Positions 23,199-62,663 of a stretch of DNA of 64,000 nt are shown here, one piece after another. Both the position numbers and the translations under genes were made by a program. The notes below the pieces were generated by a model. It was not told the DNA's origin. It made no database searches and saw only the letters and a program-made list of their open reading frames with translations. Origin of the DNA: a virus; the IMG/VR virus record IMGVR_UViG_3300033545_000001, positions 32,001-96,000 of that record, one strand, 5' to 3'. Position 1 is the first letter of the stretch, and each line of letters starts with the position of its first letter.

Positions 23199-24283
23199 TT
23201 ACTGTAGATCAGATGAGATCTACGCTTATGACAGTAGATGAGGCTTACGAGACTTTATCTAAGTCAGAGCCTATAACTGAATATCCTTTGGAGACAGGAA
23301 ATTCTGTATTCTATCTTGATGATGCTTGGAATCATGGCCTAGATGCTAAGGATGGCAATGAGCAAGTAGGTGCTTCAGTGGTCATCGGGGGTCACGAGGT
23401 GCCCATGACGAAGGATGCGATACTTCAAGCAGCCTCTCTGTGCGGCCTCTCGGGGGCTTACGTGAAGAAGACGCCCTCCAAGCTCATTGAGCCCCACCTG
23501 AACTACTGGTACGGCTCTCAGGGGCTTGGTAATCGCCCTGCTAAGATTCTCGTGACCAATGAGGTAGCATCGGCTGTCACTCGTCAGAGTATTAATCCGT
23601 TCAGCAATATAAGACTGCTTGACAGCGTGCTGAATGGTATAAAAGATTCTTTTGGTGATGAAGAAGTATTAGTGGACTCTAAGTTCCATCATTCAGTCAC
23701 AGGAACCCACATGAGGCTGGTACTTCCACAGAGAAGTTTTATCATTAATGACAGCGGGGTGGATGATGACGAGTGGTGTATGGGACTAAGTTTCCATAAT
23801 TCGCTTGTAGGAAAGACTAAGACAAGTTTAGATGGTTATTTATTCCGTTGGTGGTGTTTGAATGGAGCTATCGATACTAAGGCTTCTTCAGGAACTTGGA
23901 CTAGGAGCATAGGACCTTCTGATGAGGATGGTATATACAGTTGGGCTAAAGAGATTGTAGGCAACATTATCAGCCCTCTTGATCAGTCAGCTCATCTCCT
24001 CCAAGAAATGACAAGTCAGTCTATTGAAGGAGATGTTAATCAAATTCTCAGTGATCTTTTTGAGGATTACAGGCTCCCTGCAAGAGACCGTAAGGCTATT
24101 ATTGCTAATATGGTAGAAGAAGATAGTCTTACTATGTATTCTCTTATGCAAGCAGTGACTGAGATAGCCAATGATATGAGTCTTAGTCCTTTAGAACAGG
24201 CAAAGCTTATGCATGTAGGAGGAGACTTAACACACTCTTCTGCACACCGATGCGAGTCTTGCCACAGGATAGAAAAGATGTAA
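23195..24283 (+). CDS. DUF932-like conserved phage protein
   Basis: NSLVGKT..SLDGYLFRWWCLNG and TMYSLMQAVTEIA patterns. Confidence 0.6.
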   Translation: MITVDQMRSTLMTVDEAYETLSKSEPITEYPLETGNSVFYLDDAWNHGLDAKDGNEQVGASVVIGGHEVPMTKDAILQAASLCGLSGAYVKKTPSKLIEPHLNYWYGSQGLGNRPAKILVTNEVASAVTRQSINPFSNIRLLDSVLNGIKDSFGDEEVLVDSKFHHSVTGTHMRLVLPQRSFIINDSGVDDDEWCMGLSFHNSLVGKTKTSLDGYLFRWWCLNGAIDTKASSGTWTRSIGPSDEDGIYSWAKEIVGNIISPLDQSAHLLQEMTSQSIEGDVNQILSDLFEDYRLPARDRKAIIANMVEEDSLTMYSLMQAVTEIANDMSLSPLEQAKLMHVGGDLTHSSAHRCESCHRIEKM

Positions 24284-24284
24284 T

Positions 24285-24851
24285 ATGAGAAGATACCACA
24301 GGGCTGACTACTCTGGGCAAACATTCGGAGAACTTATGGCTCTTGAAAGAGATTCAGAAAATTCTAAGAAATGGATTTGCGAGTGCAGTTGTGGAAAAGT
24401 TACTTCTGTGTTTGGAGGTAATTTGACTACTGGTAGAACCAAGTCCTGTGGACATCTTCTTGATAGGTATAGAAACAGCTCTCCAGGATATATGGGCTAT
24501 AAAGACATCTCTGGCCGTAAATGGGCCTCCATAAAGGCAGGGGCTGATGCTAGAGGTATAGATTTCATGCTTGATATAGAAGATGCGTGGGATTTATTCA
24601 GGGATCAGGATAGAAAATGCGCCTTGTCAGGACAGCCTCTGAAGTTTGATGAGAAGTCCTACACCAGGGATGGAAATGCTTCTTTGGATAGAATAGACTC
24701 ATCTATGTCATACACTTTAGATAATGTTCAATGGGTAGATAAGGCTATCAATATTAGTAAGTGGGCAATGTCAGATGCTGAGTTCATAGATATGTGCTGC
24801 TTGATAGCCGACTACCAGAGGTCTTGCCACAGGTTGAGCACTGTGGTATAA
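24285..24851 (+). CDS. Free-standing HNH-type homing endonuclease
   Basis: WICECSCG...L..G.TKSCG N-terminus; CALSG...ASLDRIDS...Y...NVQWV...IN..K. Confidence 0.85.
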   Translation: MRRYHRADYSGQTFGELMALERDSENSKKWICECSCGKVTSVFGGNLTTGRTKSCGHLLDRYRNSSPGYMGYKDISGRKWASIKAGADARGIDFMLDIEDAWDLFRDQDRKCALSGQPLKFDEKSYTRDGNASLDRIDSSMSYTLDNVQWVDKAINISKWAMSDAEFIDMCCLIADYQRSCHRLSTVV

Positions 24852-24852
24852 T
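24824..24852 (+). promoter_or_regulatory. Sigma70-type promoter
   Basis: TTGCCA-N17-TATAAT with TGTGG extension. Confidence 0.7.
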
Positions 24853-24877
24853 GGATTCCTGACATAGACGGTTAACC

Positions 24878-24912
24878 AAAGATCCCACACTGTGTCAGTG
24901 TGGGATCTTTTT
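24878..24912 (+). terminator. Intrinsic terminator-like hairpin
   Basis: AAAGATCCCACACTG-TGT-CAGTGTGGGATCTTT then TT. Confidence 0.75.
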
Positions 24913-24923
24913 ATGGAGTTAAA

Positions 24924-25838
24924 GTGATTAATAGTCTAGACATAAATAACTTTCAATCTCTAAAGTCTGTTCACATAGAGTTAGGTCCCTTGACTGTTAT
25001 TGTGGGGGATTCTAACTGTGGCAAGTCTGCCCTGGTTAGATCTGTACAAGCTTTAGCTAGTAATGTAAGAGGTAACTCTATAGTAACCCATGGGTACAAG
25101 ATTGCTTCTGTGTCAGCTACTACAGATTCAGCTAAAGTCACTTTGGAGAAAGGTGAAGGTCATGGGTCCTACAGAGTAGTTCATGGTGACAGTGAGAAAG
25201 AGTTCACTAAATTAGCTGGAGAAGTTCCAGAAGATGTTTCCAGAGTCTTGGAATTAGATCCTGTTAAAGAGGGTTTATCTCTTAACTTTGCTCCTCAACA
25301 TGAGCCTCCATTTCTTTTGACTTCTTCAGGGTCAGTAGTGGCTAGAACTTTGGGGGATTTGACAAAGGTCAGCACAGTTCTAGAGGCTGTTCGGGAAGCT
25401 AATAGACGCAGAACTTCTACTACCAGTGATTTGAAGTTGCGTAGCAAGGATTTAGACAGTCTTAGCAATGCTCCAGAACTACTCAATAGTTTGAATATTC
25501 GTAAAGATGCTGTTCATGCAGTAGGTAAGCTTATTATTGATATAAAGTTTATAGAATCTGAAATTGCCAAATTGGAAATCATAGCAAATTCTTTAGGCAA
25601 GTTGGATATTGAAGTACCATGTATTTATGACATATCTGAATTGGTTAAAGCTTACGAAGATTTCAGTACTCTGTATAAAAGCTTAGAGAGACTACGTGAA
25701 CTGACTATAGAAGTCACAGCTTGCGAAAGATTTTACGACAGTTGGACAGAGAGATCAGAAGTATTGGATAGAGAATTTCACGAAGCGCTAGAAGAGATAG
25801 GGGAATGTCCAATATGCGGTCAGAAGATTTCGAAGTGA
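24924..25838 (+). CDS. SbcC/Rad50-like ATPase, N-terminal half
   Basis: INNFQSL, Walker A GDSNCGKS, Q-loop, coiled coil, terminal zinc hook CPICG. Confidence 0.85.
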   Translation: MINSLDINNFQSLKSVHIELGPLTVIVGDSNCGKSALVRSVQALASNVRGNSIVTHGYKIASVSATTDSAKVTLEKGEGHGSYRVVHGDSEKEFTKLAGEVPEDVSRVLELDPVKEGLSLNFAPQHEPPFLLTSSGSVVARTLGDLTKVSTVLEAVREANRRRTSTTSDLKLRSKDLDSLSNAPELLNSLNIRKDAVHAVGKLIIDIKFIESEIAKLEIIANSLGKLDIEVPCIYDISELVKAYEDFSTLYKSLERLRELTIEVTACERFYDSWTERSEVLDREFHEALEEIGECPICGQKISK

Positions 25839-45082: not shown

Positions 45083-45091
45083 GATTAGCAA

Positions 45092-47400: not shown

Positions 47401-47414
47401 CACTGGAGATTAGA

Positions 47415-47927: not shown

Positions 47928-47936
47928 GGACATTTC

Positions 47937-48542: not shown

Positions 48543-49058
48543 GTGGCTAGAGTGCAAGAGCCTTACTGTAATCAGCCACACTGTGAAGATGAGTCTTTTT
48601 CCTTAGACATGTGTAGAAGGCATTATTCTAAGCATTTAAAAGGCAGAGGGCCTAAGTCATGTGAGCATTGCAGTGTTCCTATGAATAATTTAGGCAGAAA
48701 CCAAGGCCAGCGTAAGTATTGTTCTACATGCTCTCCAGTAGGGGATTCTGAAGCTAATCAGCTTTTATGGAAATACCAATTGTCTCGTCCAGAGTATGAT
48801 GCTATGTATGAAGATCAGTTGGGCTTGTGTGCTATGCCAGGGTGTGACAGAGAAGCTAAAGAAGTAGATCACTGGCACGGCTGCACAGAGGGCCATAAAA
48901 ATCATAGGGCTTGTAGTAAGTGTGTTAGAGCATTACTGTGTAGGAATTGTAATAATAGACTAGAGCCAGTGGAGGACGAAATGTTTAGAGAAGCAGCACT
49001 GGCCTATCTAGATCAGTTTGAAAACCCTGGCAGTGGCGGAGGAGGTATGTGGAGCTGA
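48543..49058 (+). CDS. Endonuclease VII-like homing endonuclease
   Basis: KYQLS..EY..M...Q.G.CA...VDHWH...CVRALLC..CN. Confidence 0.85.
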   Translation: MARVQEPYCNQPHCEDESFSLDMCRRHYSKHLKGRGPKSCEHCSVPMNNLGRNQGQRKYCSTCSPVGDSEANQLLWKYQLSRPEYDAMYEDQLGLCAMPGCDREAKEVDHWHGCTEGHKNHRACSKCVRALLCRNCNNRLEPVEDEMFREAALAYLDQFENPGSGGGGMWS

Positions 49059-49528
49059 TGGCTGGCTACAGTAATCTTAGAACTTCATACAGTTCTATTG
49101 TTCAGGTTAGGCGATTGGTAGCTGGATCTGGACCAGGACGTATAAATGGAGCCCCTAACTATACTTGGGGCAATTCTTCAGATATCATTGACGACTATTG
49201 GGGAGTTCCTGGCCAGATGCAGTGCCGTTTGGACGTACAGTTTGTACGTCCTGGTAGTGGAGCTCCTATGCCTGCTGAATCAGCTACAGTGATTCCTCGT
49301 GTTGGAACTGTATTCTATGATATTCCAGACGATCCTTCCTATGTAAGGGCTGGAGATCATTTAATAGGTATATCAGGAGCTTTCGCTGGAAATACTTTTG
49401 AAATAAGAGTTATTCCTGAACCAGCTCAAGACTATTTTGGCCCAACACACATGGAAGCTCAAATAGTAGAGATTGCTATTGATCTTGATCTATACCCAGG
49501 AGTTGAGCCGGGAAGTATCACGAGGTGA
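49058..49528 (+). CDS. Probable head closure/stopper protein
   Basis: TGATG overlap, GGAGGAGG RBS; VRAGDHL, FEI; synteny. Confidence 0.6.
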   Translation: MAGYSNLRTSYSSIVQVRRLVAGSGPGRINGAPNYTWGNSSDIIDDYWGVPGQMQCRLDVQFVRPGSGAPMPAESATVIPRVGTVFYDIPDDPSYVRAGDHLIGISGAFAGNTFEIRVIPEPAQDYFGPTHMEAQIVEIAIDLDLYPGVEPGSITR

Positions 49529-49531
49529 TGT

Positions 49532-50278
49532 ATGTCAGAGAAGATACATGTCACTGTTGATACTAGTCAGGTAGATAAAGAGCTTAACAGGCTTATACAA
49601 GCTCCTGATATGAAGACTACAGTTGCCTTCAACAGTCTATTCGCTGAAATTACGGCTGAGGTTATGGCCATCATTCACGTAGAGACAGGTTCCCTTAAGA
49701 CAACTGCTAGATGGGAAGTAGATCCTTTTCCAACAGGCTGGCAGGGAACTGTCCATGTCGGTGGAGCAGCTCCAGGCGAGATTAATGATCCTGCATACTA
49801 TGGCGTGTTCGAATTGGCACGTGGAGGATCTCACTTTTTCTTCGCTCCTGCCTATGCCGAAGTGCCTTCAAAGATGACAGACATTATTATGGACTTCTTT
49901 GCTGGTGGGGATGCTGGTATGGCAGAACAAGCTGCCACTCCGACACCAGGAATTGGAGGAGCTGCAAAACTTCTCGGTAAGTCTGTAGAAGGAACTGCCA
50001 GGCATGAGGCTAAGAATACAGAGAAGAAAGTCAAGAAGAAGGTAGAGAAGACTTTCGAGCAGATGGCGAAAGAGGAAGAACGTAGGAATGAGAAACTATT
50101 TCCTGGTGCTTACTCTGGTCGTGGTGGAGAAGGTTTGAAGAGATCTGCCAGTACAAAGGCTGCTCAAGAAGGAGCAGAATCTAGTGATCGTACAGCTGAG
50201 GCTAGTAAATTGTACGGAATAGATTCCCCTAAAATAAAGCCTCATCGCGTCACTAGGGCACGTAGGAGAAACTTCTAA
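49532..50278 (+). CDS. Probable neck/tail completion protein (HK97 gp10-like)
   Basis: HVETGSLK...YGVFE..RG...FFAPA. Confidence 0.6.
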   Translation: MSEKIHVTVDTSQVDKELNRLIQAPDMKTTVAFNSLFAEITAEVMAIIHVETGSLKTTARWEVDPFPTGWQGTVHVGGAAPGEINDPAYYGVFELARGGSHFFFAPAYAEVPSKMTDIIMDFFAGGDAGMAEQAATPTPGIGGAAKLLGKSVEGTARHEAKNTEKKVKKKVEKTFEQMAKEEERRNEKLFPGAYSGRGGEGLKRSASTKAAQEGAESSDRTAEASKLYGIDSPKIKPHRVTRARRRNF

Positions 50279-50829
50279 TGGCTATTATAGCTGGTAACAA
50301 TAATTATCCTGATGACATTGTGCGCGGCTGTGTAAAGTATCTACTTGGCATACCTGATGTCGCCAATATTGTAGGAGCTGATTTCAACGGTCCTTGGATA
50401 TTTGAAGGTACCTGCGGGGTTAGAATGCAAGGTCAGTCTGTCAAGACTCCAGGCAGCGCAGTGACTTCTCTAGTAGTATACAGGGCTGGTAATTGGGGCA
50501 CTCCAGCGCCAGGCATGACTGCTGAATTTCCGAAGTTGGGATTTGAAATCTGGGCAGATCCTCCCAGAGAGATTAATCCCGATACTGGAAAGGGAGAAGT
50601 AACTCGTCCACAAGATGCTAGAATAGCATCTGACTATCTTTACAGTGCTTTAGACTATTACATGAATAGAACATCCCGAGGATTGGTGATGTTCGGTGAT
50701 GTATATACATGGGATTCAGTAAGACTGTCTTCAATGTCTTATCTTCCCACAATGCCTGCTGATGATCATACTACTATGGGCACATGCTCATATGGGATAC
50801 AGACAGCAAACTTCTTTACTCCTTCTTAA
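50278..50829 (+). CDS. Probable tail terminator
   Basis: Synteny and size. Confidence 0.5.
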   Translation: MAIIAGNNNYPDDIVRGCVKYLLGIPDVANIVGADFNGPWIFEGTCGVRMQGQSVKTPGSAVTSLVVYRAGNWGTPAPGMTAEFPKLGFEIWADPPREINPDTGKGEVTRPQDARIASDYLYSALDYYMNRTSRGLVMFGDVYTWDSVRLSSMSYLPTMPADDHTTMGTCSYGIQTANFFTPS

Positions 50830-50855
50830 ATAATCATACTTGAGCCCTGGAGGCC

Positions 50856-52031
50856 ATGATGTTACAGAACGAAGGACCGCTCAAGGTCCTTATCTCTGCT
50901 CCTATGTCACGATACAGTGGTTACGGATCAGATGGAATTGATATGGCTTTGGCCCTTGCAGGTAAAGGCGTAGATGTTTATTTGCAGCCAACCAATGTAC
51001 AGCCTCCACTTCCACAAGAAGTCGCCAACCTTCTTACGAAGAATCTAGAAGCTCCTTTTGATCTTATGATTCACCATGTAGATCCAGGTCAGCTTAATGC
51101 TCGTGAAGAACAGCGTGTGGCTTGTGACCTAGTTATTGGATGGTCCATGTGGGAATTCTCAACATTGGATAATCTTTCAGGTAAGTCTTCATTCAAGAAG
51201 CGCACTAAGAACTTTGATGCTCTTGTAGGATACACTGATGTGTGTAAGGGAGCCTTTGAAGATTATGCTCCTAAGAAGATGCCCATAGGAGTTCTTCAAG
51301 GCGGTTTTGACGCTGATCGTTGGAACTACATGGAACGTGATTGGTTCAGTCCTAGATTTAGCTTCATTATGAATGGTCAGCTAGGGGATAGAAAGAATCC
51401 TTGGGTAGCTATTGCTGCTTTCCAAGAATTGAAGGATGAGTATCCTGAAGAGTTTGAACCAGCAGAATTTCATCTTCATACTACAGTAAGAACTATTCCT
51501 CCCATCATTGAGGAAGCAATCCCCAAGCTTAGAATACATTATCAGACATTTACTGATAATGAGATGCATGCATTCTATAAGAGTGGTCATGTTCTTCTTG
51601 CTCCTTCCAGAGGAGAAGGAAAGAATCTTCCGGCTCTTGAGATGTTCTCAGCTGGTGGAAGTGTAATCTACACTAATTGGGGCGGACATAAAAACTGGGG
51701 CTCTGATATGTATGGCTATCCTATCGATTATAATCTTGTGCCTATCGGTAGCAGCAAGTATCCTGACTGCAAGTGGGCTGAAATCGACAAGGATGAATTA
51801 AAGGCAACAATGCTTCATTGCTTCCGTAACAGAGACGAAGTAAGGCTTAAGGGATTAAATGGGTCTAGATTCATTCCAGAAGCTTTCTCCTGGGATACTG
51901 TTATGGATCAGTTCTTTAGAAATCTTCCAGACCTTATACCTGGTAAGGGTCATGAAGTCAAGATGAAGTATGATGATGTACTTCGTGAAACTTCTAGAAG
52001 GTATACGAGTCGAGGCGTTAGATATGCCTGA
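50856..52031 (+). CDS. GT-B (GT4-like) glycosyltransferase
   Basis: SGYG, RKNP, PSRGEGKNLPALE, TNWGG. Confidence 0.85.
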   Translation: MMLQNEGPLKVLISAPMSRYSGYGSDGIDMALALAGKGVDVYLQPTNVQPPLPQEVANLLTKNLEAPFDLMIHHVDPGQLNAREEQRVACDLVIGWSMWEFSTLDNLSGKSSFKKRTKNFDALVGYTDVCKGAFEDYAPKKMPIGVLQGGFDADRWNYMERDWFSPRFSFIMNGQLGDRKNPWVAIAAFQELKDEYPEEFEPAEFHLHTTVRTIPPIIEEAIPKLRIHYQTFTDNEMHAFYKSGHVLLAPSRGEGKNLPALEMFSAGGSVIYTNWGGHKNWGSDMYGYPIDYNLVPIGSSKYPDCKWAEIDKDELKATMLHCFRNRDEVRLKGLNGSRFIPEAFSWDTVMDQFFRNLPDLIPGKGHEVKMKYDDVLRETSRRYTSRGVRYA

Positions 52032-52308
52032 GGTTGAAATTAGATGCCCTGAAGGGCCTCAGCGATTATTCATGAAGATGAGGCTGAGTGATAATGCTGA
52101 TGAGCGTCCTCATATAATTCAAGGTCTCAACTTGATGGAACTTGCTTGTTCCGATTGTGCCAGAGCTTACCGCAAAAGAGATCCAGAAATATTCAGAATA
52201 CTTCATCGTTATGCCATAGATGGAGATCTGGTAGAAAGCATAGTACAGTATAAAGATGGATCTGAAGTGATTAACAGCATATGGGATGTAACTGCCGATT
52301 ATAAGTAG
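52024..52308 (+). CDS. Small zinc-ribbon-like protein
   Basis: EIRCP...LF.K...ELACSDC; GAGG RBS before ATG 52024. Confidence 0.6.
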   Translation: MPEVEIRCPEGPQRLFMKMRLSDNADERPHIIQGLNLMELACSDCARAYRKRDPEIFRILHRYAIDGDLVESIVQYKDGSEVINSIWDVTADYK

Positions 52309-52362
52309 GAGAGGCCGTGAGCCTCAGCTTACGCACTTTCTGTATAGTGAGGTTTATACAAT

Positions 52363-52971
52363 ATGGCACAGCTCTTCTCAGGGAATGACGAAGCCTTCTC
52401 TCTGATTGCGGCTTCTATTCTTAACGGAACTACTGGCGCTGAAGCTCAGCCCATCTATGGTATCCGTACAGGAACCCTATCTGCTAACATCAGCCAGTTT
52501 GACAATACTGGTAATGACCGTGTGCTATCGCACTGGGTATGGTCAGACTACGCCACAGTGACAATTGAGTCTGGATACATTCCATGGGCAATGTATGCTA
52601 ACATTACTGGTACATCTATTACATCTTCAGGTACAGCTGGCGCTGACTACTACGCCTTGCCTCTCTGGGACTACAATTCGCTGAACCAGCCAACTCAGTC
52701 AATGCGTCTACGTTCTGCTTCTAAGGATTCCCTTGGACAAGTTCGTACATTTGACATGATTCTTTACAAGGTTCAGTTCAACCCAATCAACTTCACAGGT
52801 CCAGCTTACAAGACAGGTCTTACCTTCTCTTGCTCTGGAACTGCCTTGTACTCTCAGTTTGACGAGGCTGGAAACACTCTAACCAACCTATGTATTGGTA
52901 GAATCGTTTCTTCTCCTGGACAGGCTGGATTCTCAACAACAGCCTCTTACGGTCAAGGTCTTTCTACCTGA
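52363..52971 (+). CDS. Major tail tube protein
   Basis: About 200 aa, Thr/Ser/Gly-rich, directly before the chaperones and tape measure. Confidence 0.75.
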   Translation: MAQLFSGNDEAFSLIAASILNGTTGAEAQPIYGIRTGTLSANISQFDNTGNDRVLSHWVWSDYATVTIESGYIPWAMYANITGTSITSSGTAGADYYALPLWDYNSLNQPTQSMRLRSASKDSLGQVRTFDMILYKVQFNPINFTGPAYKTGLTFSCSGTALYSQFDEAGNTLTNLCIGRIVSSPGQAGFSTTASYGQGLST

Positions 52972-52993
52972 TCTTAGTCAGATGCTCGTGGGA

Positions 52994-53013
52994 TGGCCCC
53001 TCGCAAGAGGGGC
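52994..53013 (+). terminator. Hairpin after the tail tube gene
   Basis: GGCCCCTC-GCAA-GAGGGGCC; weak U tract. Confidence 0.55.
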
Positions 53014-53072
53014 CTCTCCCTTAAAACTTAATATAACATTAATTATCGATAAGCCTCGGAGGCTAGAAACTA

Positions 53073-53645
53073 ATGTCTGAACTAGACGCGCTTGATCCCG
53101 TACCAGGTACTATTACTTTATCCACTGGTGCTGAGGTCAAGCTTCTTGATTTGAAGGCCCGACAGTTCTTCAAGCTGCTACGTATCATTTCTCATGGTCC
53201 AGCTATGGCAGCTCTCTCTAACTCTAATAACCTGCTTCAGGGCGATCCTGAAGCAGTTGTTATGCGTCTAGTCGGATTCCTTCTAGTGAGTATCCCAGAT
53301 GCTTACGATGAGACACTTGCATTCCTTCAGGACATGGTACAGCCAATTGATCTTAAGGAAATTCCTACCAATGGTGACAAGGTATCAAAACAGTCTGCCA
53401 CTGAGCATAATCAGGCACAGTGGAATGAACTTGCCAAGGCTTTGGACAATCCAGAGATCGAAGATGTTGTAGATCTAGTAGACGCCATTATCAAGCGTGA
53501 GTCAGCTGATCTGGTGGCCCTGGGAAAAAAGGTAGCCAGCCTGTTCCGAGTAGCGGAGAAGACAGGCCAGTTAGAGAAGCCTACACCCCAGAAATCCCAG
53601 GGTCAGAGTACCTCGGGGGCTTCAGCAAAGCGTTCGACACGATAA
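53073..53645 (+). CDS. Tail assembly chaperone (G-like)
   Basis: Position; contains GGGAAAA slippery site at 53522. Confidence 0.8.
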   Translation: MSELDALDPVPGTITLSTGAEVKLLDLKARQFFKLLRIISHGPAMAALSNSNNLLQGDPEAVVMRLVGFLLVSIPDAYDETLAFLQDMVQPIDLKEIPTNGDKVSKQSATEHNQAQWNELAKALDNPEIEDVVDLVDAIIKRESADLVALGKKVASLFRVAEKTGQLEKPTPQKSQGQSTSGASAKRSTR

Positions 53646-54097
53646 GTTCTGAGTATGGATGGTCAGACAAGAAGGTAATGAATCTGACCATTAAGCGTAT
53701 CAGGCAGATCACTGCTGCTATAGCTGAGAGAAAGTTCTATGAGGACAAGAGAAATCGTTCTTACAGTACTTGGACCGTGCAATCTCTAGCTCATATTATA
53801 GCCTCTAATGGAATGTTGGATGAGAAGAGTTCTAAGAAGATTCATGAGTATATTAGTGAAGACATATTCTTAGAAATCCCAGCTGAGCGTGAAATCAGAG
53901 AGAAGCAGAAGGTCAAGGATATTGCCAATAGTTTCAAAGATCTTGGCGATTACGAGCGTATCATGCAAAATCTTCCAGAAGGCTTTACTGGGGGAATGGG
54001 AGCTATGGGAGGGCTCGCGGCTATTGCTGAAACTTCCTCAAGTGGTGAAATGTTAATTAGTATTGCCGATCTACCTGACGGCCCTCCTGAGCTGTAA
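53522..54097 (+). CDS. Tail assembly chaperone -1 frameshift extension (GT-like)
   Basis: The -1 frame is open from GGGAAAA through EYGWSDKKVMNLT into ORF 53678..54097. Confidence 0.8.
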   Translation, partial: GKKGSQPVPSSGEDRPVREAYTPEIPGSEYLGGFSKAFDTISSEYGWSDKKVMNLTIKRIRQITAAIAERKFYEDKRNRSYSTWTVQSLAHIIASNGMLDEKSSKKIHEYISEDIFLEIPAEREIREKQKVKDIANSFKDLGDYERIMQNLPEGFTGGMGAMGGLAAIAETSSSGEMLISIADLPDGPPEL

Positions 54098-54128
54098 GAA
54101 GGTCGATAGTAGTATTGGATAGACTTAG

Positions 54129-54160
54129 AACCGACACAGACTATCTGTGTCGGTTTCTTT
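54129..54160 (+). terminator. Intrinsic terminator-like hairpin before the tape measure gene
   Basis: AACCGACACAGA-CTA-TCTGTGTCGGTT then TCTTT. Confidence 0.7.
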
Positions 54161-54188
54161 GTTAGAGCGCATGACGCGGAGGTAAGCA

Positions 54189-57100
54189 GTGCCTAGTGTA
54201 CCTGGAGATCACACATACGATGTGGTTTATCGCGCAACTGCTGACTTCACAGATCTCTTCGCTGAAGTAGCAGCAGCCAAGGCTGCGATGGAAGAGCTCA
54301 AAGAGAGCACTGACGATACCAACTCTTCTAGTGAAGATGGCGCTAAGGCCGCCGCAGATGCTGAGGAAGCTCGCACTAAGGCGATGCAGGATGCCTCAAA
54401 GGCAGCCAAGGAATATGAGCAGCAGCAATTGTTGCTCAACAAGGCTGAGAACAATGGCTTCAACACGCCCCAGGAAGCTAAAGCTTTCCGTGATCAAGAT
54501 ACTCAGAGTCTTTTACAGCACAACATTCAAGAAAATGGTGGACGCACAAGTCCAGACCAGGCTCTTCAAGATATTCGCAATAAGACTGCTGCCCTAAATA
54601 GTGAGAATGCATCTCTTGCTGAAATGCGAGAGACCATTGATGAGTCCACTAACTCTCTCCAGGATGCCAGTAAGGCAGCTCAAGATTTTCAAGACAGCCT
54701 AGAAGATCTTGAAGAAGGTTCTCAGGATGTTAAGCAGGCTGTAGAAGATACAGGTCAAGCTCTAGATGATTTCTCTTCTAAGTCTAAGAGTGCTGGAAGT
54801 AATGCTTCTCAAACTGGAAACAATCTAAAAGATATTGCTGAGGGAGCTTCTATAGCTGCCAGGGGTATTGATGATGTAAATCAATCTCTTGATGAAAGCT
54901 CTAAGGCATTTTTGGAATATCAGCAAGCTCGCAAAGATGCCAACTCTGCTGCAAACCAGACTCCTACAACTTCATTAAACACTTCTATTGGCAATGCCTC
55001 AACTGACATTGAAGAGGCCATGCGTGAGCAAGCAGCAGCAATTGCTGCTGCCAATCAGTCTCGCAATAACATGTCAGCTGAATCGTTAGCAGAGTCAGCT
55101 GAAAAGAATGCTGCAAACAATGTCTCTACTGGGCTGTTCTCGGCAGAGGCTCTTAATGGCGCAAAGAACTTTGCAGAAGAAGTAGAGGAAGAAGTAACTC
55201 CTGCTGTCAAGAATGCTGACAGTGCTTTGAAGGCTGCTGGGCAATCTGCTTCTGGTCTAAGCGATGAATTTGAAGCTTCTACTGCTCAAGGTGTTGTTTT
55301 ATCAGCTGCTATGGCTGACGTGGACAAGAAGGTAGAAGGACTTTCTAATAACCTCAGCAGCGGCTTCTCTTCTGCTTTTGTTAAGCAGCTGGGTGGAGTT
55401 CTCAAGGATTACAATTCTGTAGCTAAGGCCGCTACTGGCTTAGATGACCCTTCTGCACGTCAGTGGGTAGTTGATACAGGCAATGAACTTGACAGTCTGG
55501 CTGTGCAGCTTCAGGAGACTCAGAAGGGCATAGAGGGAGTTGGAGGAGCATTTGAATCCTCTGGGGATGATGCTGACAACTTCGGAACTGTGCTTTCAAA
55601 GGTTAATAGTGCGTCTGCTGTAATTCTAGCTAGTAACCTAGAATCTATTGAGAACAAGCTAGCTAAGATGCACAGCGATCTTGAGACTGGCGGTAATGAC
55701 TGGGATACCTTTGCATCAAGTATTGCCAAGACTAACTCGCAGCTGAATGCTGCCACAAAGCAAGCAGCTGCACTAGATGATCCTGCTGCTAAGAATGCTG
55801 TAACTGATCTTAAGATTGCATTCGATTCTTTGTCTATGCAGGCATTGGCATCTAGAGATGATGTTGATGTATTCACTGCTTCTGAAATGAAGAACAGTGC
55901 AGCTTCGGTAATTCTAGCTAGTAATATAGAAGCTATTGAAGACAAGCTCACTAAGATGAGCACTGATCTAGAAGCTGGTGGAAACGACTGGGATGCCTTC
56001 TCAGTAAGTATTGCTAAGACCAACGCTCAGCTTAACGCTGCTTCGAAGCAGGCAGATGCTCTAGATGATCCTGATGCAAAGAATGCTGTCAATGATTTGA
56101 AGGAAGCCTTTGGTTACCTATCTCAGCAGGCACTTGCATCTAAGGACGACCTAGATGTATTCACTGCTGCTGAGAGCAAGAACAGTGCAACTTCTGTACT
56201 GCTTTCTAGTAACATAGACAGTGTAAGGTCTAAGGTAGACGATCTAGAGAATTCTCTGAAGTCTGGGGACTCTGCCTGGAATGACTTCATTGTAGCTCTA
56301 ACTAAGGCCAACACTGAGTTGGCAGGCGTAGGAAAGCAGGCTGGGACTCTAGGAGATACTGAATCTAGAAATTCTATAAATGCTCTACAGCTAGCTCTTA
56401 ATGATATAGCTGTACAGGCTCTAGGCTCTAAAGATGATTTGGGAGCATTCAAGACTGCTGAGGATGTGGCAGCTGAGAGTGCTGCCAAGCTTGCTGCTGC
56501 CACAAAAGATGCAAAGACAGCTGCCTATGAGGCAACAACCACTTATAAAATATTCGCTAGTGGCCTTAAGGCAATTTCTAATGAATTTGCATCTTTGTCT
56601 GCTCAGACAAAAGCAGAAGGCGGAGGAAGTGGATTCTTAGGATTCCTAGGTAATTTCTTAGGTGGAGGACTTAGCGGAGTTTCTTCAGGATTCAATGCTC
56701 TAGCTACTGCTGCTGGAAGCGCACTTCCCCTAGTTCTAGGTCTTTCTGTAGCTATTCCTGCTGTTGCTACAGCTATTGTAGGTCTTGCCACAATAGTTGG
56801 AGGTTTAGTAGGCGCTATGGCGCCAATGGTGGGTATATTTATCACCTTCTTGCCTATTATTCTAGGTGTGGCAGAGGCTGCTGGAGTTCTATATCTTGCT
56901 ATTGAACCACTGATCTCTGCTGTCAATGAATTCAGACAGGCTACTACCAAGAGCGGAGCAGAAGCTGCCCTCAAGGGACTTAGTCCTGTCATGGCACAGG
57001 CAGCTAAAGACATTGCTGGATTTATCAAGGCTCTTACTGGAGCTAAGGGAGCCCTTAAGGATATTGGCACTGAGGTATTCTCTCCTCTCCTGGGATCTCT

Positions 57101-60100
57101 TAGTAAGTTAAGTACTGTAATTAAGCCTGTTGAAGAGGCTTTGAATACAATGGCTGGAGCTGCGGGTAAGTTCCTACAGCCAGTTCTTGCTGGATTCGTC
57201 AATTTCTTGGACAGCTCTAATTTCCAAACCTTGACAAAAGCAGCTGCTGACGGACTTGTGTACTTTGGTGGAACTGTATCCAACTTCCTAGATGCTTTGG
57301 GCAAGTTGGCAACTGATGCTGCTCCTTACACAGTTCAAATTGCTAAGATATTTGATGATCTGTCAAAGGCTCTAAATACATCTGTATCTGTAGGATCTAG
57401 TGATGGAAGTATCAGCACATTCCTCAATCAGATGATGACAGGATTTGGAATCCTGTTTAACATCATCAGTGGAATCTTTGATATTCTAGCCAAGTGGGGT
57501 CCTGCTCTTGCTCCTATTGGCAATCTTATTGGAAATGATCTAGCTAAGGGACTCCATGATGCAGCTAATGCTGCTGACAGTGTTGACTTTAAGCAGTGGA
57601 ACAGTGAGCTTACCCAGTTCATTTCAGGAATTGGAACAGCGGCCAAGGGTATTGGTACACTATTTGCAGCTCTAGTAAATAACAAGTTCCTAGGATTCCT
57701 TGGAGACATCCTTACTGATATTGGACATATTGCTACTGCTCTGGCTCCTATTGTCAAGTTCTTTACTGACATTGTTGCAGGATCTCTACCTGCTCTACAG
57801 AAGATATTCAATGATATCTCTGGTGTAGTAGTGGGCATATTGAAGCCTATTGATGACTTCCTGGATAAGGTAGAGCAGAACAAGGACGCCATGAAGGTCC
57901 TTTCCGGAATCTTCACTGCTTTGGCTTCTCTGGTTATCGCTGGAAGTGTTCTCTCATTCTTCAGCATGCTGGGAGGATTGGCAGGTAAGGGATTCTCAGG
58001 CCTTATAGATCTTATCAACAAGATCCCTGGAATCAATCTTCCTGGAGGATCAGGCGGAAGTAGTGGAAGTAGCACTCCCGTAGTAAGCGCTATCAACAAG
58101 CTTGGTGTTGATGTAAGTGCTAATGCTGATGAGAATGCTGCAAAGATTGTCACAGCTATTACTGGGGAAGAGACTGAAGAAGGAGTAGCAGGAGAAGGTG
58201 AATCAGCAGCTGGTGCTGAAGCTGCTGGTATTGGAGCTACTGCTACTATTGCGGGCATTGTTACTGCTGTTTTGGCATTCCTTGGTGCAGGATTCCTTAT
58301 CTACGAGATTATTCATGGAGCTGCTGATCCTAATTCTACGGTTCACAGGGCTAACAGTTATGTTACTCAGCATGATGGGGCTAATTGGTGGGACAGGGAA
58401 GTAGCTGGACCCGCTGATAGAGATGTGTATGATCCTACTGGCCGTGGAATTGCTGGCGCCGCTAAGGGTCTTGCTGATATTAATAAGACTGCTGTTCCTG
58501 ACTTCTTTACAGATGACACTCAGTGGGAGAAGGATGCTAATAAGGCAATGATCGCATTCTTCACAGGTAACGCTGGTTGGGAGAAGGCATCTAATACAGC
58601 TATTCCTGACTTCTTCACAGACAAGTCTGAATGGGAAAGGACTGCGCAGAGAGCTGTAGGGGACTTCTTTACCAATAATGATGAGTGGGAGAAGGCTTCT
58701 GAAACAGCAGTTGGACATTTCTTCACAGACAACACTGCTTGGGAAAAGGCTGCTAATCATGCTATAGCTGATTTCTTTACAGACAATACTGGCTGGGAGA
58801 AGGCTGCTGATAAGTCTATTTCAGGGTGGTTCAGCAGTGCTGGCGAATGGTTCATGCGTGATGTGTATGAGCCTATCGAGAAGTGGGTAACTAACGACTT
58901 TGTCGGATTCTTCACTAACTCAGTAGCCCGCTGGTTTACTGATGCTGGCTCATGGTTCATGAGAGATGTTTATGAGCCTGTAAAGAATTGGGTTACTGGA
59001 GACTTTGTAAACTTCTTTACTAGCTCTATTCCTCACTGGTTCGATGATGTAACCACTTGGTTCATGAGAGATGTCTATAATCCAGTAGAGCATTGGGTTA
59101 TGAATGATATCCCTGGATTTTTCACTAATTCTATCCCTAACTGGTTCTCCAGTGTGTGGAAGGAATTCCAGAAGAATGTTGTTGATCCTATTGGTAACTG
59201 GCTGACGGGTACTGGAAGTGATTCACTGACAGGATTCTTTGAAGCTGGATTCAAGGATGCTCTTAACGCTGTAATCAAGGACGTATTCAACAACGGACTT
59301 ATCCATCTATTGAATGATGCTCTTGGTGTAGTAGGTCTGAAGATTCCTAACATTCCTACATTCGCAGCAGGAGGCCATGTACAAGGCAACCTAGGAGAAG
59401 CTGATAACAGCGATTCTGTATGGGCTAAACTGACTCCCGGAGAATTCGTTATTCGTAAGAGAGCTGCTGCTGCTCTTGGACCAGACACTCTGGCTCAATT
59501 GAATCAGGCAGACAGGCCAGGAGCTATTGGCAAGCACGCTAATGGAGGATACGCAGGAGCCTTCGCAGGCGGCGGTATAGTAGGAGACGTAGAAGGCTGG
59601 GGAAGCAGCCTGCTTTCAGGTGCTGAGGGCCTAGTAGGAGACGTGGCTAGCTGGGCTTCAAGTTTCGTCTCCGGAGCCCTACAGAGTACGTTTAATGAAG
59701 CTTACAAGGCTATCGTTAATCCTATCCTTGGCACCTTGCCTTCAGGCACTATTCCTACAGGAATGGCTACCTTGGCTGCTGGAAGTGTGAAGAATGCTGT
59801 AGATGTGTTCTTAGGAGCTCAGGATCAGAAGGCTGATGCTGCTGCAACAGGAGCAGTTGGAGGCTCTCTTCCAACTGGAGATCACAAGCAGATCATTGTT
59901 GAAGCTCTTCAGGCTGCTGGAGTTGCTGCTAATCAATGGCCTGTGTGGGAAACAGGATTGAACACTCTTATTACAAGAGAGTCTAGTTGGAATCCATCTT
60001 CTGTTAACACAACTGACTCTAACGCTGCTGCTGGGAATCCTTCAGAAGGACTTGCTCAGACAACTGGTACTACCTTCAATGAGTACCATGTGCCAGGAAC

Positions 60101-60470
60101 TTCTGACGACATTCTAGATCCTGTAGCTAATGTTGCTGCTGCCATTAAGTATATTGAAGATGTATATGGTTCAATTACTAATGTTCAGCAGGCTAATGCC
60201 AATGAGCCTCCAAAGGGTTATGCTACAGGCGGATTCGTGGGAGATCCAACTTTGGGAATGGGATTTGCTGCTGGAGGTTACAGTATGGCTCCTACAGCTG
60301 GAACTCCTTCAATGAAGTCTCAGGCTGGAATGAATGCTGGTGGAAGACTTTCTGGTCCTGGAGTTCATGTGGAAAATTTGAACATCACTAATCCAATTCC
60401 AGAGCAGTCAGGCGATTCTCTACAGAGAGCAATGACTCGCTTGCGCGTCTATGACGGGAGAGGCAACTAA
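54189..60470 (+). CDS. Tape measure protein with C-terminal SLT lytic transglycosylase
   Basis: 2093 aa, helical, Trp/Phe repeats, FAAGG...LTPGEFVI, RESSWNP...EGLAQ...DPVANVAAAIKY. Confidence 0.93.
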   Translation: MPSVPGDHTYDVVYRATADFTDLFAEVAAAKAAMEELKESTDDTNSSSEDGAKAAADAEEARTKAMQDASKAAKEYEQQQLLLNKAENNGFNTPQEAKAFRDQDTQSLLQHNIQENGGRTSPDQALQDIRNKTAALNSENASLAEMRETIDESTNSLQDASKAAQDFQDSLEDLEEGSQDVKQAVEDTGQALDDFSSKSKSAGSNASQTGNNLKDIAEGASIAARGIDDVNQSLDESSKAFLEYQQARKDANSAANQTPTTSLNTSIGNASTDIEEAMREQAAAIAAANQSRNNMSAESLAESAEKNAANNVSTGLFSAEALNGAKNFAEEVEEEVTPAVKNADSALKAAGQSASGLSDEFEASTAQGVVLSAAMADVDKKVEGLSNNLSSGFSSAFVKQLGGVLKDYNSVAKAATGLDDPSARQWVVDTGNELDSLAVQLQETQKGIEGVGGAFESSGDDADNFGTVLSKVNSASAVILASNLESIENKLAKMHSDLETGGNDWDTFASSIAKTNSQLNAATKQAAALDDPAAKNAVTDLKIAFDSLSMQALASRDDVDVFTASEMKNSAASVILASNIEAIEDKLTKMSTDLEAGGNDWDAFSVSIAKTNAQLNAASKQADALDDPDAKNAVNDLKEAFGYLSQQALASKDDLDVFTAAESKNSATSVLLSSNIDSVRSKVDDLENSLKSGDSAWNDFIVALTKANTELAGVGKQAGTLGDTESRNSINALQLALNDIAVQALGSKDDLGAFKTAEDVAAESAAKLAAATKDAKTAAYEATTTYKIFASGLKAISNEFASLSAQTKAEGGGSGFLGFLGNFLGGGLSGVSSGFNALATAAGSALPLVLGLSVAIPAVATAIVGLATIVGGLVGAMAPMVGIFITFLPIILGVAEAAGVLYLAIEPLISAVNEFRQATTKSGAEAALKGLSPVMAQAAKDIAGFIKALTGAKGALKDIGTEVFSPLLGSLSKLSTVIKPVEEALNTMAGAAGKFLQPVLAGFVNFLDSSNFQTLTKAAADGLVYFGGTVSNFLDALGKLATDAAPYTVQIAKIFDDLSKALNTSVSVGSSDGSISTFLNQMMTGFGILFNIISGIFDILAKWGPALAPIGNLIGNDLAKGLHDAANAADSVDFKQWNSELTQFISGIGTAAKGIGTLFAALVNNKFLGFLGDILTDIGHIATALAPIVKFFTDIVAGSLPALQKIFNDISGVVVGILKPIDDFLDKVEQNKDAMKVLSGIFTALASLVIAGSVLSFFSMLGGLAGKGFSGLIDLINKIPGINLPGGSGGSSGSSTPVVSAINKLGVDVSANADENAAKIVTAITGEETEEGVAGEGESAAGAEAAGIGATATIAGIVTAVLAFLGAGFLIYEIIHGAADPNSTVHRANSYVTQHDGANWWDREVAGPADRDVYDPTGRGIAGAAKGLADINKTAVPDFFTDDTQWEKDANKAMIAFFTGNAGWEKASNTAIPDFFTDKSEWERTAQRAVGDFFTNNDEWEKASETAVGHFFTDNTAWEKAANHAIADFFTDNTGWEKAADKSISGWFSSAGEWFMRDVYEPIEKWVTNDFVGFFTNSVARWFTDAGSWFMRDVYEPVKNWVTGDFVNFFTSSIPHWFDDVTTWFMRDVYNPVEHWVMNDIPGFFTNSIPNWFSSVWKEFQKNVVDPIGNWLTGTGSDSLTGFFEAGFKDALNAVIKDVFNNGLIHLLNDALGVVGLKIPNIPTFAAGGHVQGNLGEADNSDSVWAKLTPGEFVIRKRAAAALGPDTLAQLNQADRPGAIGKHANGGYAGAFAGGGIVGDVEGWGSSLLSGAEGLVGDVASWASSFVSGALQSTFNEAYKAIVNPILGTLPSGTIPTGMATLAAGSVKNAVDVFLGAQDQKADAAATGAVGGSLPTGDHKQIIVEALQAAGVAANQWPVWETGLNTLITRESSWNPSSVNTTDSNAAAGNPSEGLAQTTGTTFNEYHVPGTSDDILDPVANVAAAIKYIEDVYGSITNVQQANANEPPKGYATGGFVGDPTLGMGFAAGGYSMAPTAGTPSMKSQAGMNAGGRLSGPGVHVENLNITNPIPEQSGDSLQRAMTRLRVYDGRGN

Positions 60471-60518
60471 CTGCCGCTTGTAGTAAAAGTACAGTCATTG
60501 CGCAGTTAGGAGCCTTTT

Positions 60519-60566
60519 ATGAAGTGCAGTTCTTGCTTGGAGAAGTATGATGGACGTGGAAACTAA
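60519..60566 (+). pseudogene. Probable homing-endonuclease remnant fused to a duplicate of the tape measure 3' end
   Basis: AGGAG RBS; MKCSSCLEK-YDGRGN*, where YDGRGN* equals the TMP C-terminus. Confidence 0.6.
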
Positions 60567-60587
60567 TGGAGCCCATGGAGGCGTTAG

Positions 60588-61478
60588 ATGACTAACAGCG
60601 ATAACGAATATTGGTTCGTAGGTGGAACCAGTCTGAATCAGTACTGCTGGGCTGTTAACACTTTTGCTGCTGGACGAGCTGTTCCAGTTCTGCGTGGAAA
60701 TAACATTCAAGTAGCTTACATTCCCGGTCAGATTCATCGTCAGAAGTATCCTGACAGTAGAACTTTGGACTTTGCCATGTTTGTGGCTGCTGTTGATCCC
60801 ACAACTGATCAGCCTCCATCTCAGGCACAGAAGCTGATGTTCAGCAACAATGTAAAGACATTACAGAAATTGTTCTATAATTACAATGGTCAGGTTGCTG
60901 GACAGCAGATTCCTCTTACACGTCAATGGTACTATTCTCTTCCAATAAATATAGGAATGCCTCAAGGTGTTCCCACTATGGTACAGGCAACAGCTCAAGC
61001 TGAAATAGCTGGGGACCTTCAACTTACTATGAATGGTCCCCATTCGGCTAGTCTTACAGTAAGTCTTTTGTTAGCTGATCCCTATTTCTATGGGCCAGCT
61101 ATTACAGGAGCTGTACCAGTTAACACTACTGCCTCAAGTGTTATCAATACTGGTGATGATGTTGCTGCGTATTTCAATAATTCAGTAACATTGTATGGTC
61201 CTTTGCAATATCCTAGGCTATTGAATGCTACAACAAGTCCAAATACATGGTTCCAGCTTAATACTGTTATCTTAGCTGGGGATTCTGTAACACTGGATAT
61301 TGCCAACTTCACAGCTTATAGAGCTTCTGACGGGGCTAACCTGTCAGGACTTCTGAGCCATTCGGGGACTACTAGGTGGATGAGTTATTATCCAGGAGTT
61401 AACAGTCTTATTCTGAGTTCTAATAATAGCGGAGATACAGGAAGTGCTACATTTTCCTTTGTACCTCCTTATGTCTAA
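60588..61478 (+). CDS. Distal tail (Dit-like) protein
   Basis: Directly after TMP; LADPYFYG, PGVNSL patterns. Confidence 0.75.
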   Translation: MTNSDNEYWFVGGTSLNQYCWAVNTFAAGRAVPVLRGNNIQVAYIPGQIHRQKYPDSRTLDFAMFVAAVDPTTDQPPSQAQKLMFSNNVKTLQKLFYNYNGQVAGQQIPLTRQWYYSLPINIGMPQGVPTMVQATAQAEIAGDLQLTMNGPHSASLTVSLLLADPYFYGPAITGAVPVNTTASSVINTGDDVAAYFNNSVTLYGPLQYPRLLNATTSPNTWFQLNTVILAGDSVTLDIANFTAYRASDGANLSGLLSHSGTTRWMSYYPGVNSLILSSNNSGDTGSATFSFVPPYV

Positions 61479-61528
61479 TCCGATTGTTTATATGATTTTA
61501 CTCCTAGAGTCCATGGAGACCAGCATAC

Positions 61529-61723
61529 ATGACCCAAAATCGTTCTTTTTCTGCTGATCACGATCACTCTTGCTGCCCAAACCCTGCAAAAAGTTGCGGA
61601 GAGTGTATAAGAGGACTGTTATGTCAACGTTGTAATATGGCTTTGGGTCTCCTAGCTGATAATGTAGAAACTTTATTGAGGGCAGTAAATTACCTAAGTG
61701 GTGAGTCTAATTACACAGAATAG
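61529..61723 (+). pseudogene. Truncated endonuclease VII-like gene (C-terminal part only)
   Basis: DHDHSCC...[19 protein letters not shown]...RAVNYL; upstream domains absent. Confidence 0.8.
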
Positions 61724-62663
61724 ATATTACTCTAATCTAGCTCAGGCAACATTTATTGCCAATACAGGCGGATTAGGTATTTCTACAGCTTCTCTTCAGG
61801 TTACTGCTAATGAGAACTGGCCTACTCAGTTTCCATTCGCTCTTTGGTTAGAGCCGAATACTAACAATGCTGAAGTAGTCCTTGTAACATCTGGAAGTGG
61901 CACTTCTATTAGTCCTTATGCCATTACACGTGGCTATGATGGAACTATTGCCTTTGCTCACGCTTCTGGAGCTATTGTAACCCCTGGCGTTATTGAGCTT
62001 GACCTGGCTGATCCTCAGAATCATATTAATCTATCAGGATCGACTTCAGGTGCTCACGGTCTTCCAGCCTCAGCTTGGTTGGGAGGACAGCTTCAGCTTA
62101 TCAGCACTCAGACTGTCCTCACTCCACAGCCAACTGTGACTTTCAACTCAGCTGTGTTTGCAACTATTCCATCATCTATAAATCACCTGCTAGTAATGGT
62201 TCAGGCTCTGTCCTCTTCCCTGGCTAATAATAATGATTATTTAATGGTACAGTATAATGGATATACAGGCAGCTTTTACTGTGATGAATTCCTTCTAAAT
62301 GTCAATGGGACTAACACCACTGGCAACTCTGCCTCTAACACTTCCTCATCAGGTATGACTAACAACTGGCATATCAACTCCAGCATGGCTACTTGTGGAG
62401 TTATTATGACTACTGATGATGGAATAGCTTCTACAGGATACTGTGAGGTAGTATTCCCTAACTTTAAGAATACTGCAAATACTGCTCCAAGAGGTCATAA
62501 CTTCAAATTCGGTGGAAGTAATAACACAGTTCCTTATATAATCTCAGGGAATGGCAGTGGATCTTGTGCTAATGTGACAGCTCCTATTACTTCACTGACA
62601 TTCCAGACTATTCTAGGGTATAACTTCACAGCTAACTCTGTATTCCAGCTGTATGGTTTCTAG
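61698..62663 (+). CDS. Minor tail/fibre protein, paralog 1
   Basis: About 130-aa N-terminal domain shared with the next gene; start codon uncertain. Confidence 0.75.

Follow-up and report, generated by a model that had tools for sequence, protein, structure and literature searches.

Background

Group I introns and inteins house endonucleases inside genes without destroying them, and they need RNA or protein splicing to do so. Here we describe four sites, named S1 to S4, in a 64,000-nucleotide (nt) stretch of viral DNA (hereafter the window; bases 32001-96000 of the 119,392-bp viral contig of IMG/VR record IMGVR_UViG_3300033545_000001, 46% G+C and rated 89% complete), at which an endonuclease open reading frame (ORF), or a remnant of one, is fused to one copy of the end of a phage gene while the gene itself carries a second copy. 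Unlike genes that hold a group I intron or an intein, the host ORFs at these sites are complete as encoded. We judge it likely that, at each of the four sites, a free-standing homing endonuclease cassette has inserted into the terminal codons of a phage gene, and that the ends now in use were imported together with the enzyme.

The closest described systems are the fungal mitochondrial mORF gene hybrids, reported for Glomus atp6, atp9, cox2 and nad3 (Beaudet et al. 2013, PMC3630166) in a paper that also cites cases in Allomyces macrogynus atp6, Rhizopus atp9 and Mortierella cox2; C-terminal duplications adjoining endonuclease ORFs occur in Endoconidiophora as well (PMC6279837). As described in the accessible parts of these papers, the fungal layout comprises an in-phase inserted C-terminus, an endonuclease ORF and a displaced native C-terminus. 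S1 to S3 share this order, and S4 is its mirror image at a 5' end, which we note as a difference. In both systems the native copy is close to near relatives and the inserted copy has diverged in DNA; the fungal inserted copies show 64-81% DNA and 94-100% protein likeness, and their ORF is sometimes in phase with the gene (PMC3630166). The fungal enzymes are organellar and of the LAGLIDADG or GIY-YIG type, whereas those here are Endonuclease VII and HNH-like proteins of a tailed phage, and the duplicated segments span tens to hundreds of codons in the fungi and 4-14 codons here. Furthermore, unlike in the fungal hybrids, the displaced native end here still serves the next gene as stop, ribosome site and start. 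Fungal mORFs and phage cassettes are the same design in a different family.

Phage T4 provides two further comparisons. Its seg and mob endonucleases cut the cassette-free allele and co-convert the flanks (intronless homing, PMC2988022), as we propose for the cassettes here, and, as a further point in common, their starts overlap the stop of the upstream gene, as that of mobE does with nrdA (Edgell, Gibb and Belfort 2010, PMC2988022). Unlike the elements described here, the T4 genes sit between genes without a substitute gene end, and the accessible text of that review makes no mention of duplication. MobA is an HNH homing endonuclease that, like the elements here, sits in a phage coding region without an intron or intein, and it is absent from near-identical phages and has decayed and "hit and run" forms, again as here (Manning and Atkins, bioRxiv 10.1101/2022.08.31.505936). 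According to the available portion of that preprint, MobA encodes homR, a diverged homolog of the stretch with its own nick site, in the way that the cassettes here carry a diverged end. However, MobA splits gene 60 into two polypeptides with novel extensions and a 50-nt translational bypass and deletes the native stretch, whereas at the sites described here a single host ORF is continuous to its stop with no gap needing bypass, and the native end is kept downstream or upstream. The spare-end trick is documented for fungal mitochondria; in the literature covered, including the accessible main texts of PMC10448857, PMC12724721, PMC2988022 and PMC2248197, we found no phage endonuclease with duplicated gene ends on either side.

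Results

Duplicated gene ends at four sites

A sequence-only reading of the window had proposed duplicated gene termini at four sites, and all four repeats are present. The layout is common to the sites: a host gene body, a diverged replacement end, an endonuclease ORF or remnant, and the native end in the endonuclease frame, where the stop, ribosome site, start or promoter-like motif that it had originally is still present. The cassettes lie at the 3' ends of genes at three sites (S1-S3) and at the 5' end at one (S4), and two enzymes are intact (S1, S2) and two decayed (S3, S4). The features, in window coordinates, are as follows:

23195-24283, plus strand: S1 host gene, 362 amino acids (aa), conserved phage protein, phrog_1362
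24257-24283, plus strand: S1 replacement end SCHRIEKM and stop, the host gene's current working end
24285-24851, plus strand: S1 HNH-like endonuclease ORF, 188 aa, in frame into the native end
24822-24851, plus strand: S1 native end SCHRLSTVV and stop, fused to the endonuclease; proteins P0001 and P0124 have the identical end
47937-48542, plus strand: S2 host gene, 201 aa, virion-region protein, no family match
48500-48542, plus strand: S2 replacement end, finishing in PADEGNGSSGGMWS and stop, diverged from the native end in letters and residues
48543-49058, plus strand: S2 Endonuclease VII ORF, 171 aa, GTG start directly after the host stop; phrog_2914
49020-49058, plus strand: S2 native end ENPGSGGGGMWS and stop, fused to the endonuclease
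54189-60470, plus strand: S3 host gene, tape measure protein, 2093 aa, SLT domain PF01464 recorded
60437-60470, plus strand: S3 replacement end TRLRVYDGRGN and stop, in other codons than the empty allele
60480-60509, plus strand: decayed third tape measure end VVKVQSLRS and stop, in frame after the S3 host stop
60519-60566, plus strand: S3 mini-ORF MKCSSCLEKYDGRGN and stop, 15 codons, consisting of MKCSSCLEK (9 codons, own AGGAG site) and the native YDGRGN, which with its stop lies at 60546-60566
61529-61723, plus strand: S4 truncated Endonuclease VII ORF, 64 aa, MTQNR followed by the C-terminal half
61529-61543, plus strand: S4 native start, the fiber gene's ATG and first five codons, used by the remnant along with the native ribosome site
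61698-61727, plus strand: S4 replacement start, GTG GTG leading into VSLITQNRY, overlapping the remnant's end
61698-62663, plus strand: S4 host gene, tail fiber protein, 321 aa, phrog_38058

The peptide had been said to be kept, with changed codons, at three of the four sites, and this is correct: the copies differ at 6/18 nt over the six repeated codons of S2, at 5/21 nt in YDGRGN and stop of S3 and at 4/12 nt in TQNR of S4, with zero residue changes in each. At S1, the SCHR codons are the same in both copies, which share the exact 13-nt repeat GTCTTGCCACAGG at 24256 and 24821. The duplication at S2 is longer than had been proposed; it covers at least 12 codons and is partly nonsynonymous, the host C-terminus reading EGNGSSGGMWS and that of the endonuclease ENPGSGGGGMWS, both finishing in GGMWS before the stop.

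Agreement of this kind is rare elsewhere in the genome. All 2,508 ORFs of at least 12 aa in the 119,392-bp genome were compared as same-strand pairs with stops within 1,500 nt, and at least five common C-terminal residues were found in 3 of the 39,205 near pairs, two of which are S2 and S3, the third being formed by tiny ORFs that lie beyond the window; the rate among distant pairs (5/1,538,781) predicts about 0.13 near pairs. That the repeats are chance similarities of short peptides in neighboring ORFs is therefore virtually impossible, even with TQNR and SCHR being just four residues long, since this excess is joined by a 13-nt exact DNA repeat at S1 and by insert-free alleles (see below) whose joints fall exactly at the repeat boundaries. 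The tiny adjoining ORFs, at genome positions 24944-25069 on the minus strand, have the last five residues ILTSG in common, perhaps as the product of a short repeat in the DNA.

The other seven endonuclease genes of the genome show no convincing end in common with their neighbors. Isolated four-residue matches (PKRT, GWNS, RNIG and PGSG) are at chance level, and an RWSSG match was rejected as a gene-end repeat, being explained by the 5' ends of two tRNA-Glu genes. No Hint domain was found in Pfam scans of the ORFs, and no intron model matched in the window at the Rfam gathering score; the sole match was a lone tRNA gene at 17203-17274 on the plus strand (RF00005, 63.8 bits), which lies amid replication-region genes.

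Native and newcomer ends

Near-identical strains are present in public runs of other samples. Logan contigs from four such runs (X2, X3, X4 and X6) were compared with the window over positions 44000-63900; S1 lies outside this range, and its alleles were judged from protein clusters. Two viral contigs, G001 (126 kb, 55-64% protein identity) and G002 (124 kb, 31-41%), served as outgroups. The closest named phage, Microbacterium phage Magritte, is 37-38% identical in two proteins and is thus too distant for site comparison. The DNA surrounding S2 and S1 (1.7 and 2.7 kb) had no match in a phage collection, and all relatives returned by a metagenome scan were at most 60% identical.

At S2, the X2 and X6 contigs exit the window match at 48499 and resume at 49020 (X2) or 49023 (X6), with 7 or 10 intervening letters. 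Read by hand, these alleles skip the endonuclease and encode WPAQENPGSGGGGMWS, which is the fused-copy end. Proteins P0075, P0076 and P0080 (98, 90 and 82% identical to the S2 host protein) have as their sole end WPAQENPGSGGGGMWS, the fused copy or near variants of it, and the window-type end PADEGNGSSGGMWS is also found in P0111 and P0123. As a separate observation, P0118, a member of the S2 host cluster on a 132,780-nt contig, joins the S2 host gene and the next gene in a single 359-aa ORF through a frame shift in the last codons, either a real frameshift or an assembly error.

At S3, a 20,323-nt contig of X3 has six other letters in 58500-60436, carries 13 other letters instead of 60437-60545 and resumes at 60546. 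Its tape measure gene encodes the same last 11 residues, with YDGRGN and stop spelled as in the second copy of the window and TRLRV in other codons (hand reading). Tape measure relatives of 75-81% identity in this region (P0132-P0135) end in RAMTRLRVY[DN]G[RH]G[NS], that of P0133 (79%) being identical, and in G001 the gap between the tape measure gene and Dit is just 22 nt.

At S4, X3 skips 61545-61727 with two other letters, for a joint of 61544 to 61728. This allele runs from the native ATG, with the codons that are fused to the remnant in the window, straight into YYSNL. Fiber relatives start with MTQNRYY or MTAQNRYY, and G001 has a single start, MTQNRYY, with an upstream ribosome-site region that can be aligned with the native region of S4. 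At S1, P0001 and P0124 (363 aa, 99% identical to the S1 host protein) have the C-terminus SCHRLSTVV of the fused copy, and relatives of 79-90% identity end in SCHR[LI][SN][PT][VM]V. The window-type IEKM end also occurs in P0125, P0126 and P0129, and in none of 74 S1-host homologs retrieved in a separate search.

The expectation that an empty allele should have one copy matching the endonuclease-fused version holds at all four sites (X2, X3 and X6 contigs; P0001 and P0124 proteins). Since the insert-free alleles have a single copy of the fused type, each of the four sites has its native end in the fused copy, and its working end is a newcomer. Presence or absence at one exact site among near-identical strains is observed at S1, S2, S3 and S4, and at one further endonuclease gene, on the minus strand at 45124-45807. 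That gene, an Endonuclease VII (PF02945, E 2.7e-16), lies just before a capsid-region gene at 45856; it is absent from the X3 contig (joint 45084 to 45943), and X4 has other sequence there.

It is extremely improbable that the carrier state is ancestral and that all insert-free alleles are secondary deletions. Two S2 alleles do resemble deletions: in X3 and in X6 record 23 the endonuclease is skipped and the left part of the newcomer is kept, with joints exactly at 6-nt runs common to both copies, TGGCAG (48515/49028) and ATGTGG (48531/49047). These are best read as enzyme deletions by recombination between the copies, and it would be less parsimonious to take one of them for the lineage in which the newcomer end arose. 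However, the empty alleles of S1, S3 and S4 and the native S2 alleles of X2 and X6 have native-type codons only, relatives down to 75-82% identity have single native-type ends, and all four sites lack an insert in G001 and G002.

Origin of the newcomer ends

The newcomer ends had been taken for recoded versions of the native ones. The change of codons stands; import from a diverged relative is a simpler account of it than recoding made for the purpose. At S3, the working end differs from the X3 allele in 9 of 11 codons (12 nt) and in no residue, against about 0.3% divergence in the flank (hand count), and the five codons ahead of the duplicated part likewise differ in spelling from the empty allele, as in a co-conversion tract. 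Since tape measure relatives conserve the end peptide, it could have been supplied, in different codons, by a diverged donor. The third, decayed end in the spacer resembles the G001 tape measure end, RVRVQGVRG and stop, with 17/27 nt alike and the stop at an equal position (alignment, hand count). At S2, divergence begins at 48500 (contig comparison, hand reading), and the newcomer's EGNG motif is common to relatives of 52-67% identity (P0084, P0085 and P0093), which is no more than a lead. At S1, the newcomer IEKM is similar to the IKKV(V) ends of a group of 62-64% identity (P0011, P0014).

An alternative is that the substitute ends were recoded in place, by exact duplication followed by synonymous changes selected for resistance and against recombinational loss. 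In its favor, all changes at S3 and S4 are synonymous, and a young stage of such a gradual process could be seen in S1, which is still identical over 13 nt, and in the nearly identical repeats of locus L012 (see below). We nonetheless consider it unlikely. The substitute ends of S2 and S1 differ from the native ends in residues and length, and the S2 newcomer contains a TCA/AGC serine switch that is impossible by single synonymous steps. The S3 patch has a sharp onset within a flank of about 99.7% identity, in the manner of a conversion tract, and the third end in its spacer resembles a foreign lineage. In the fungal hybrids, the inserted ends cluster with other lineages, according to the accessible part of PMC3630166. 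The abrupt S3 patch, the S2 and S1 differences in residues and length and the third S3 end favor an imported end over recoding in place; the two processes are not mutually exclusive.

Further differences lie within the tape measure gene. X3 has a 6-nt insertion at 58217 and a replaced stretch of about 225 nt at 58339-58565, and X4 has the same 33 extra letters at 58500/58586; we regard the 58217-58586 differences as length variation in the tape measure repeat region. The tape measure gene of G001 (locus L001, 1-3960) has a long insert beginning CVPLDTMILTKRGW that is intein-like in appearance.

The endonucleases and adjoining signals

The genome has six Endonuclease VII (PF02945) matches, five of them above the cut-off, and four HNH (PF01844) matches. 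The S2 enzyme matches PF02945 with an E-value of 4.9e-10 (39.6 bits against a cut-off of 23.6). The S4 remnant matches positions 36-81 of the 82 in the same model (E 1.6e-13, 50.8 bits), positions 1-35 being gone. X4 contigs match the window to 61544 and from 61545, with at least 255 and 66 other letters exactly at 61544/61545, and both junctions are in frame (by hand); X4 thus most likely carries more of the enzyme than the window, in which the N-terminal half is gone, and its copy may be full-length. A link from the S4 remnant to the fiber gene by programmed frameshifting or readthrough was considered and dropped, as no signal was found. A fiber paralog at 62672-63601 has the same conserved N-terminal motif as the S4 target and is uninvaded. 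At S3, the proposed remnant proved to be a 9-codon stub with its own ribosome site; its N-terminus is endonuclease-like, with a K-C-x-x-C also found in other endonucleases.

The description of the S1 ORF as HNH is supported by PHROG, in which it matches HNH and endonuclease families (E 1e-19), and by a weak fold match, and is not borne out by Pfam (no match even at E 10) or NCBIfam (none). In Atlas the protein belongs to unnamed viral clusters, with Endonuclease VII and HNH clusters at 0.88-0.90 only, and Pfam scans of 10 of the 150 relatives listed for it gave sub-threshold rows only. Its family has 37,199 viral representatives at E <=0.001. A search against sequences of solved structures gave no meaningful match (myoglobin, E 0.68). 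The structure model has a predicted local distance difference test score (pLDDT) of 90.8.

The elements had also been proposed to take over the original stop, ribosome-binding site or promoter, and candidate signals of each kind are found in the native ends. The fused copy of S2 contains GGAGGAGG at 49039-49046, 11 nt before the ATG of the next gene, and its stop overlaps that ATG at 49058 as TGATG. The S4 remnant uses the fiber gene's native ribosome site and start. At S1, a promoter-like TTGCCA-17-TATAAT with TG (11/12 consensus match, 24824-24852) overlaps the native end, and a hairpin follows:

24879-24909, plus strand: S1 terminator-like hairpin, 14 pairs and five U, just 3' of the native end (folding: -25.2 kcal/mol, z -3.77)

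The hairpin was identified by folding and is unlisted by the consensus terminator scan; it and the promoter are predicted signals, matching by energy and by consensus only.

Similar arrangements at other loci

Loci of the S1 and S2 host genes in other viral contigs were found by alignment-based scans, single-protein scans being unproductive, and loci around relatives of Dit were collected as well. Among 23 of the latter, one has an S3-like layout. In this locus (L012), from a high-G+C phage, a full Endonuclease VII gene (PF02945, E 2.3e-19) lies between the tape measure and Dit genes, the same junction as S3. The enzyme ends in LAGRGMA after a tape measure protein ending in LAGRGLA, and it overlaps Dit as TAATG. 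No ORF repeating the host end was seen in 13 viral loci of the S1 host gene, 11 of the S2 host gene, the remaining 22 of the 23 Dit loci or a set of 17/17 Dit loci, ORF lists having been judged by eye with unclear calls in several high-GC or cut loci.

A survey of Endonuclease VII genes used an alignment of five such enzymes; 80 loci were fetched, of which 79 were analysable and gave 195 pairs of an enzyme and an upstream ORF. At least four common terminal residues were found in 4/195 pairs (L111, L113 and L114, LEGLRK and stop; L115, VETN and stop), and another, L152, has three residues in common. L111, L113 and L114 are one arrangement, which leaves two independent cases in 79 loci. When enzymes and ORFs were paired across loci, such runs occurred in 17 of 15,210 pairs, 6 of them from L111, L113 and L114 paired mutually. 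L111 has a stop-start overlap, ATGA; in its first copy the ATG is changed to GTG, which is the enzyme's own start.

It is very unlikely that the junctions were duplicated first, by replication or recombination error, and that endonucleases landed later between the copies, which would make the association of repeat and enzyme secondary. Short tandem duplications are common in phage genomes. However, the endonuclease frame runs straight into the second copy at all four sites and in L012, L111 and L115, all insert-free alleles seen carry one copy, and no two-copy insert-free strain is present among the compared contigs, although the search for one was not exhaustive.

Two endonuclease loci of the same genome lie outside the window. 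Interspersed among eight tRNA genes at genome positions 117400-119392 (L072) are two endonuclease genes, one of HNH type (117646-118113) and one of Endonuclease VII type (118189-118614). The second starts right after tRNA-Glu(CTC), and its last 22 nt overlap tRNA-Glu(TTC); the arrangement recalls the seg genes in the tRNA region of T4. At 109120-109689 (L071), two long ORFs flank an Endonuclease VII gene that has no repeated end and overlaps the first ORF at that ORF's end; we take these ORFs, from our own reading of the sequence, to be ribonucleotide reductase small and large subunit-like.

Discussion

The insertion of cassettes with imported ends, which we favor, suggests the following course of events. 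A cassette consists of a substitute end, complete with a stop or a start, and an endonuclease ORF that lacks a far-side boundary of its own and reads into the native end (3' sites) or out of the native start (5' site). With this design the host protein is complete without splicing, the downstream gene retains its ribosome site and overlapping stop-start, and the carrier genome is left without an uninterrupted native end. In a mixed infection, the enzyme would cut the uninterrupted end of a cassette-free phage, and repair would copy the cassette together with a short stretch of donor flank. Because the substitute end would travel with the enzyme through diverged relatives, the peptide would be kept where it is conserved and the codons would differ. 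Divergence between the copies should also lower self-cleavage and recombinational loss. Later, the endonuclease may decay, as in the truncated S4 and the S3 stub, or be deleted between short repeats, with the substitute end staying in use. The empty, occupied, longer, decayed and deleted alleles together look like a cycle of gain, decay and loss.

Several points weigh against this reading. Cleavage, the cleavage site, immunity and the direction of transfer are what we infer, and the evidence from other strains consists of Logan contigs and protein clusters rather than whole aligned genomes. We found no donor lineage whose native end is one of the substitute ends. The substitute end of S2 differs in residues and length, and the term "recoded" therefore does not fit it. 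The S1 protein may be a nuclease with unusual or absent DNA cutting: the top Foldseek rows of its model are HNH nucleases (PacI and Cas9 HNH domains), with a best E of 0.025 and none at <=0.001, and D135-R136 is invariant in 40 aligned family members, the Arg appearing in our alignment to occupy the position of the HNH general-base His. The S2 enzyme has DHWH where four paralogs have DHDH, although the C, K, C, R, C and N columns further on are retained; we presume that the DHWH/DHDH and C to N positions are catalytic Endonuclease VII residues. The 9-codon S3 stub is too short for family assignment. The replacement start of S4 is a GTG without an evident ribosome site, so that expression of the fiber protein from it is putative.

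Whether terminus-replacing endonuclease cassettes are a general, undescribed way of living in phage genes, and a main driver of the evolution of gene ends and junctions, is a more tentative matter; we regard it as possible while leaning against it. If true, each hop would swap or respell the terminal codons of virion and replication genes, copy junction signals and leave scar ends and debris ORFs after decay of the enzyme. On this reading, the retained native end might also be a binding site through which the enzyme controls the downstream promoter, by analogy with I-TevI, which does so at its own promoter.

Conclusions

A splicing-free route into genes, as the sequence-only reading had proposed, is supported at these sites, although it is not new in principle, given the fungal mitochondria and, in part, T4 MobA, as far as the accessible text on each describes them. 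Endonuclease VII-type homing enzymes of which the properties are known are few, F-CphI being an example (PMC6083498, from the portion available), and the native junction and the two carrier junctions of each site provide defined substrates for the specificity of such an enzyme. The cassettes would explain odd short ORFs met by annotators, such as the S3 stub, abrupt synonymous patches at gene ends, and endonuclease tails that copy a neighboring gene. Endonuclease genes can, on this evidence, colonize coding sequence without introns or inteins by means of a spare gene end, and the alleles that record it are natural ones from one phage population.

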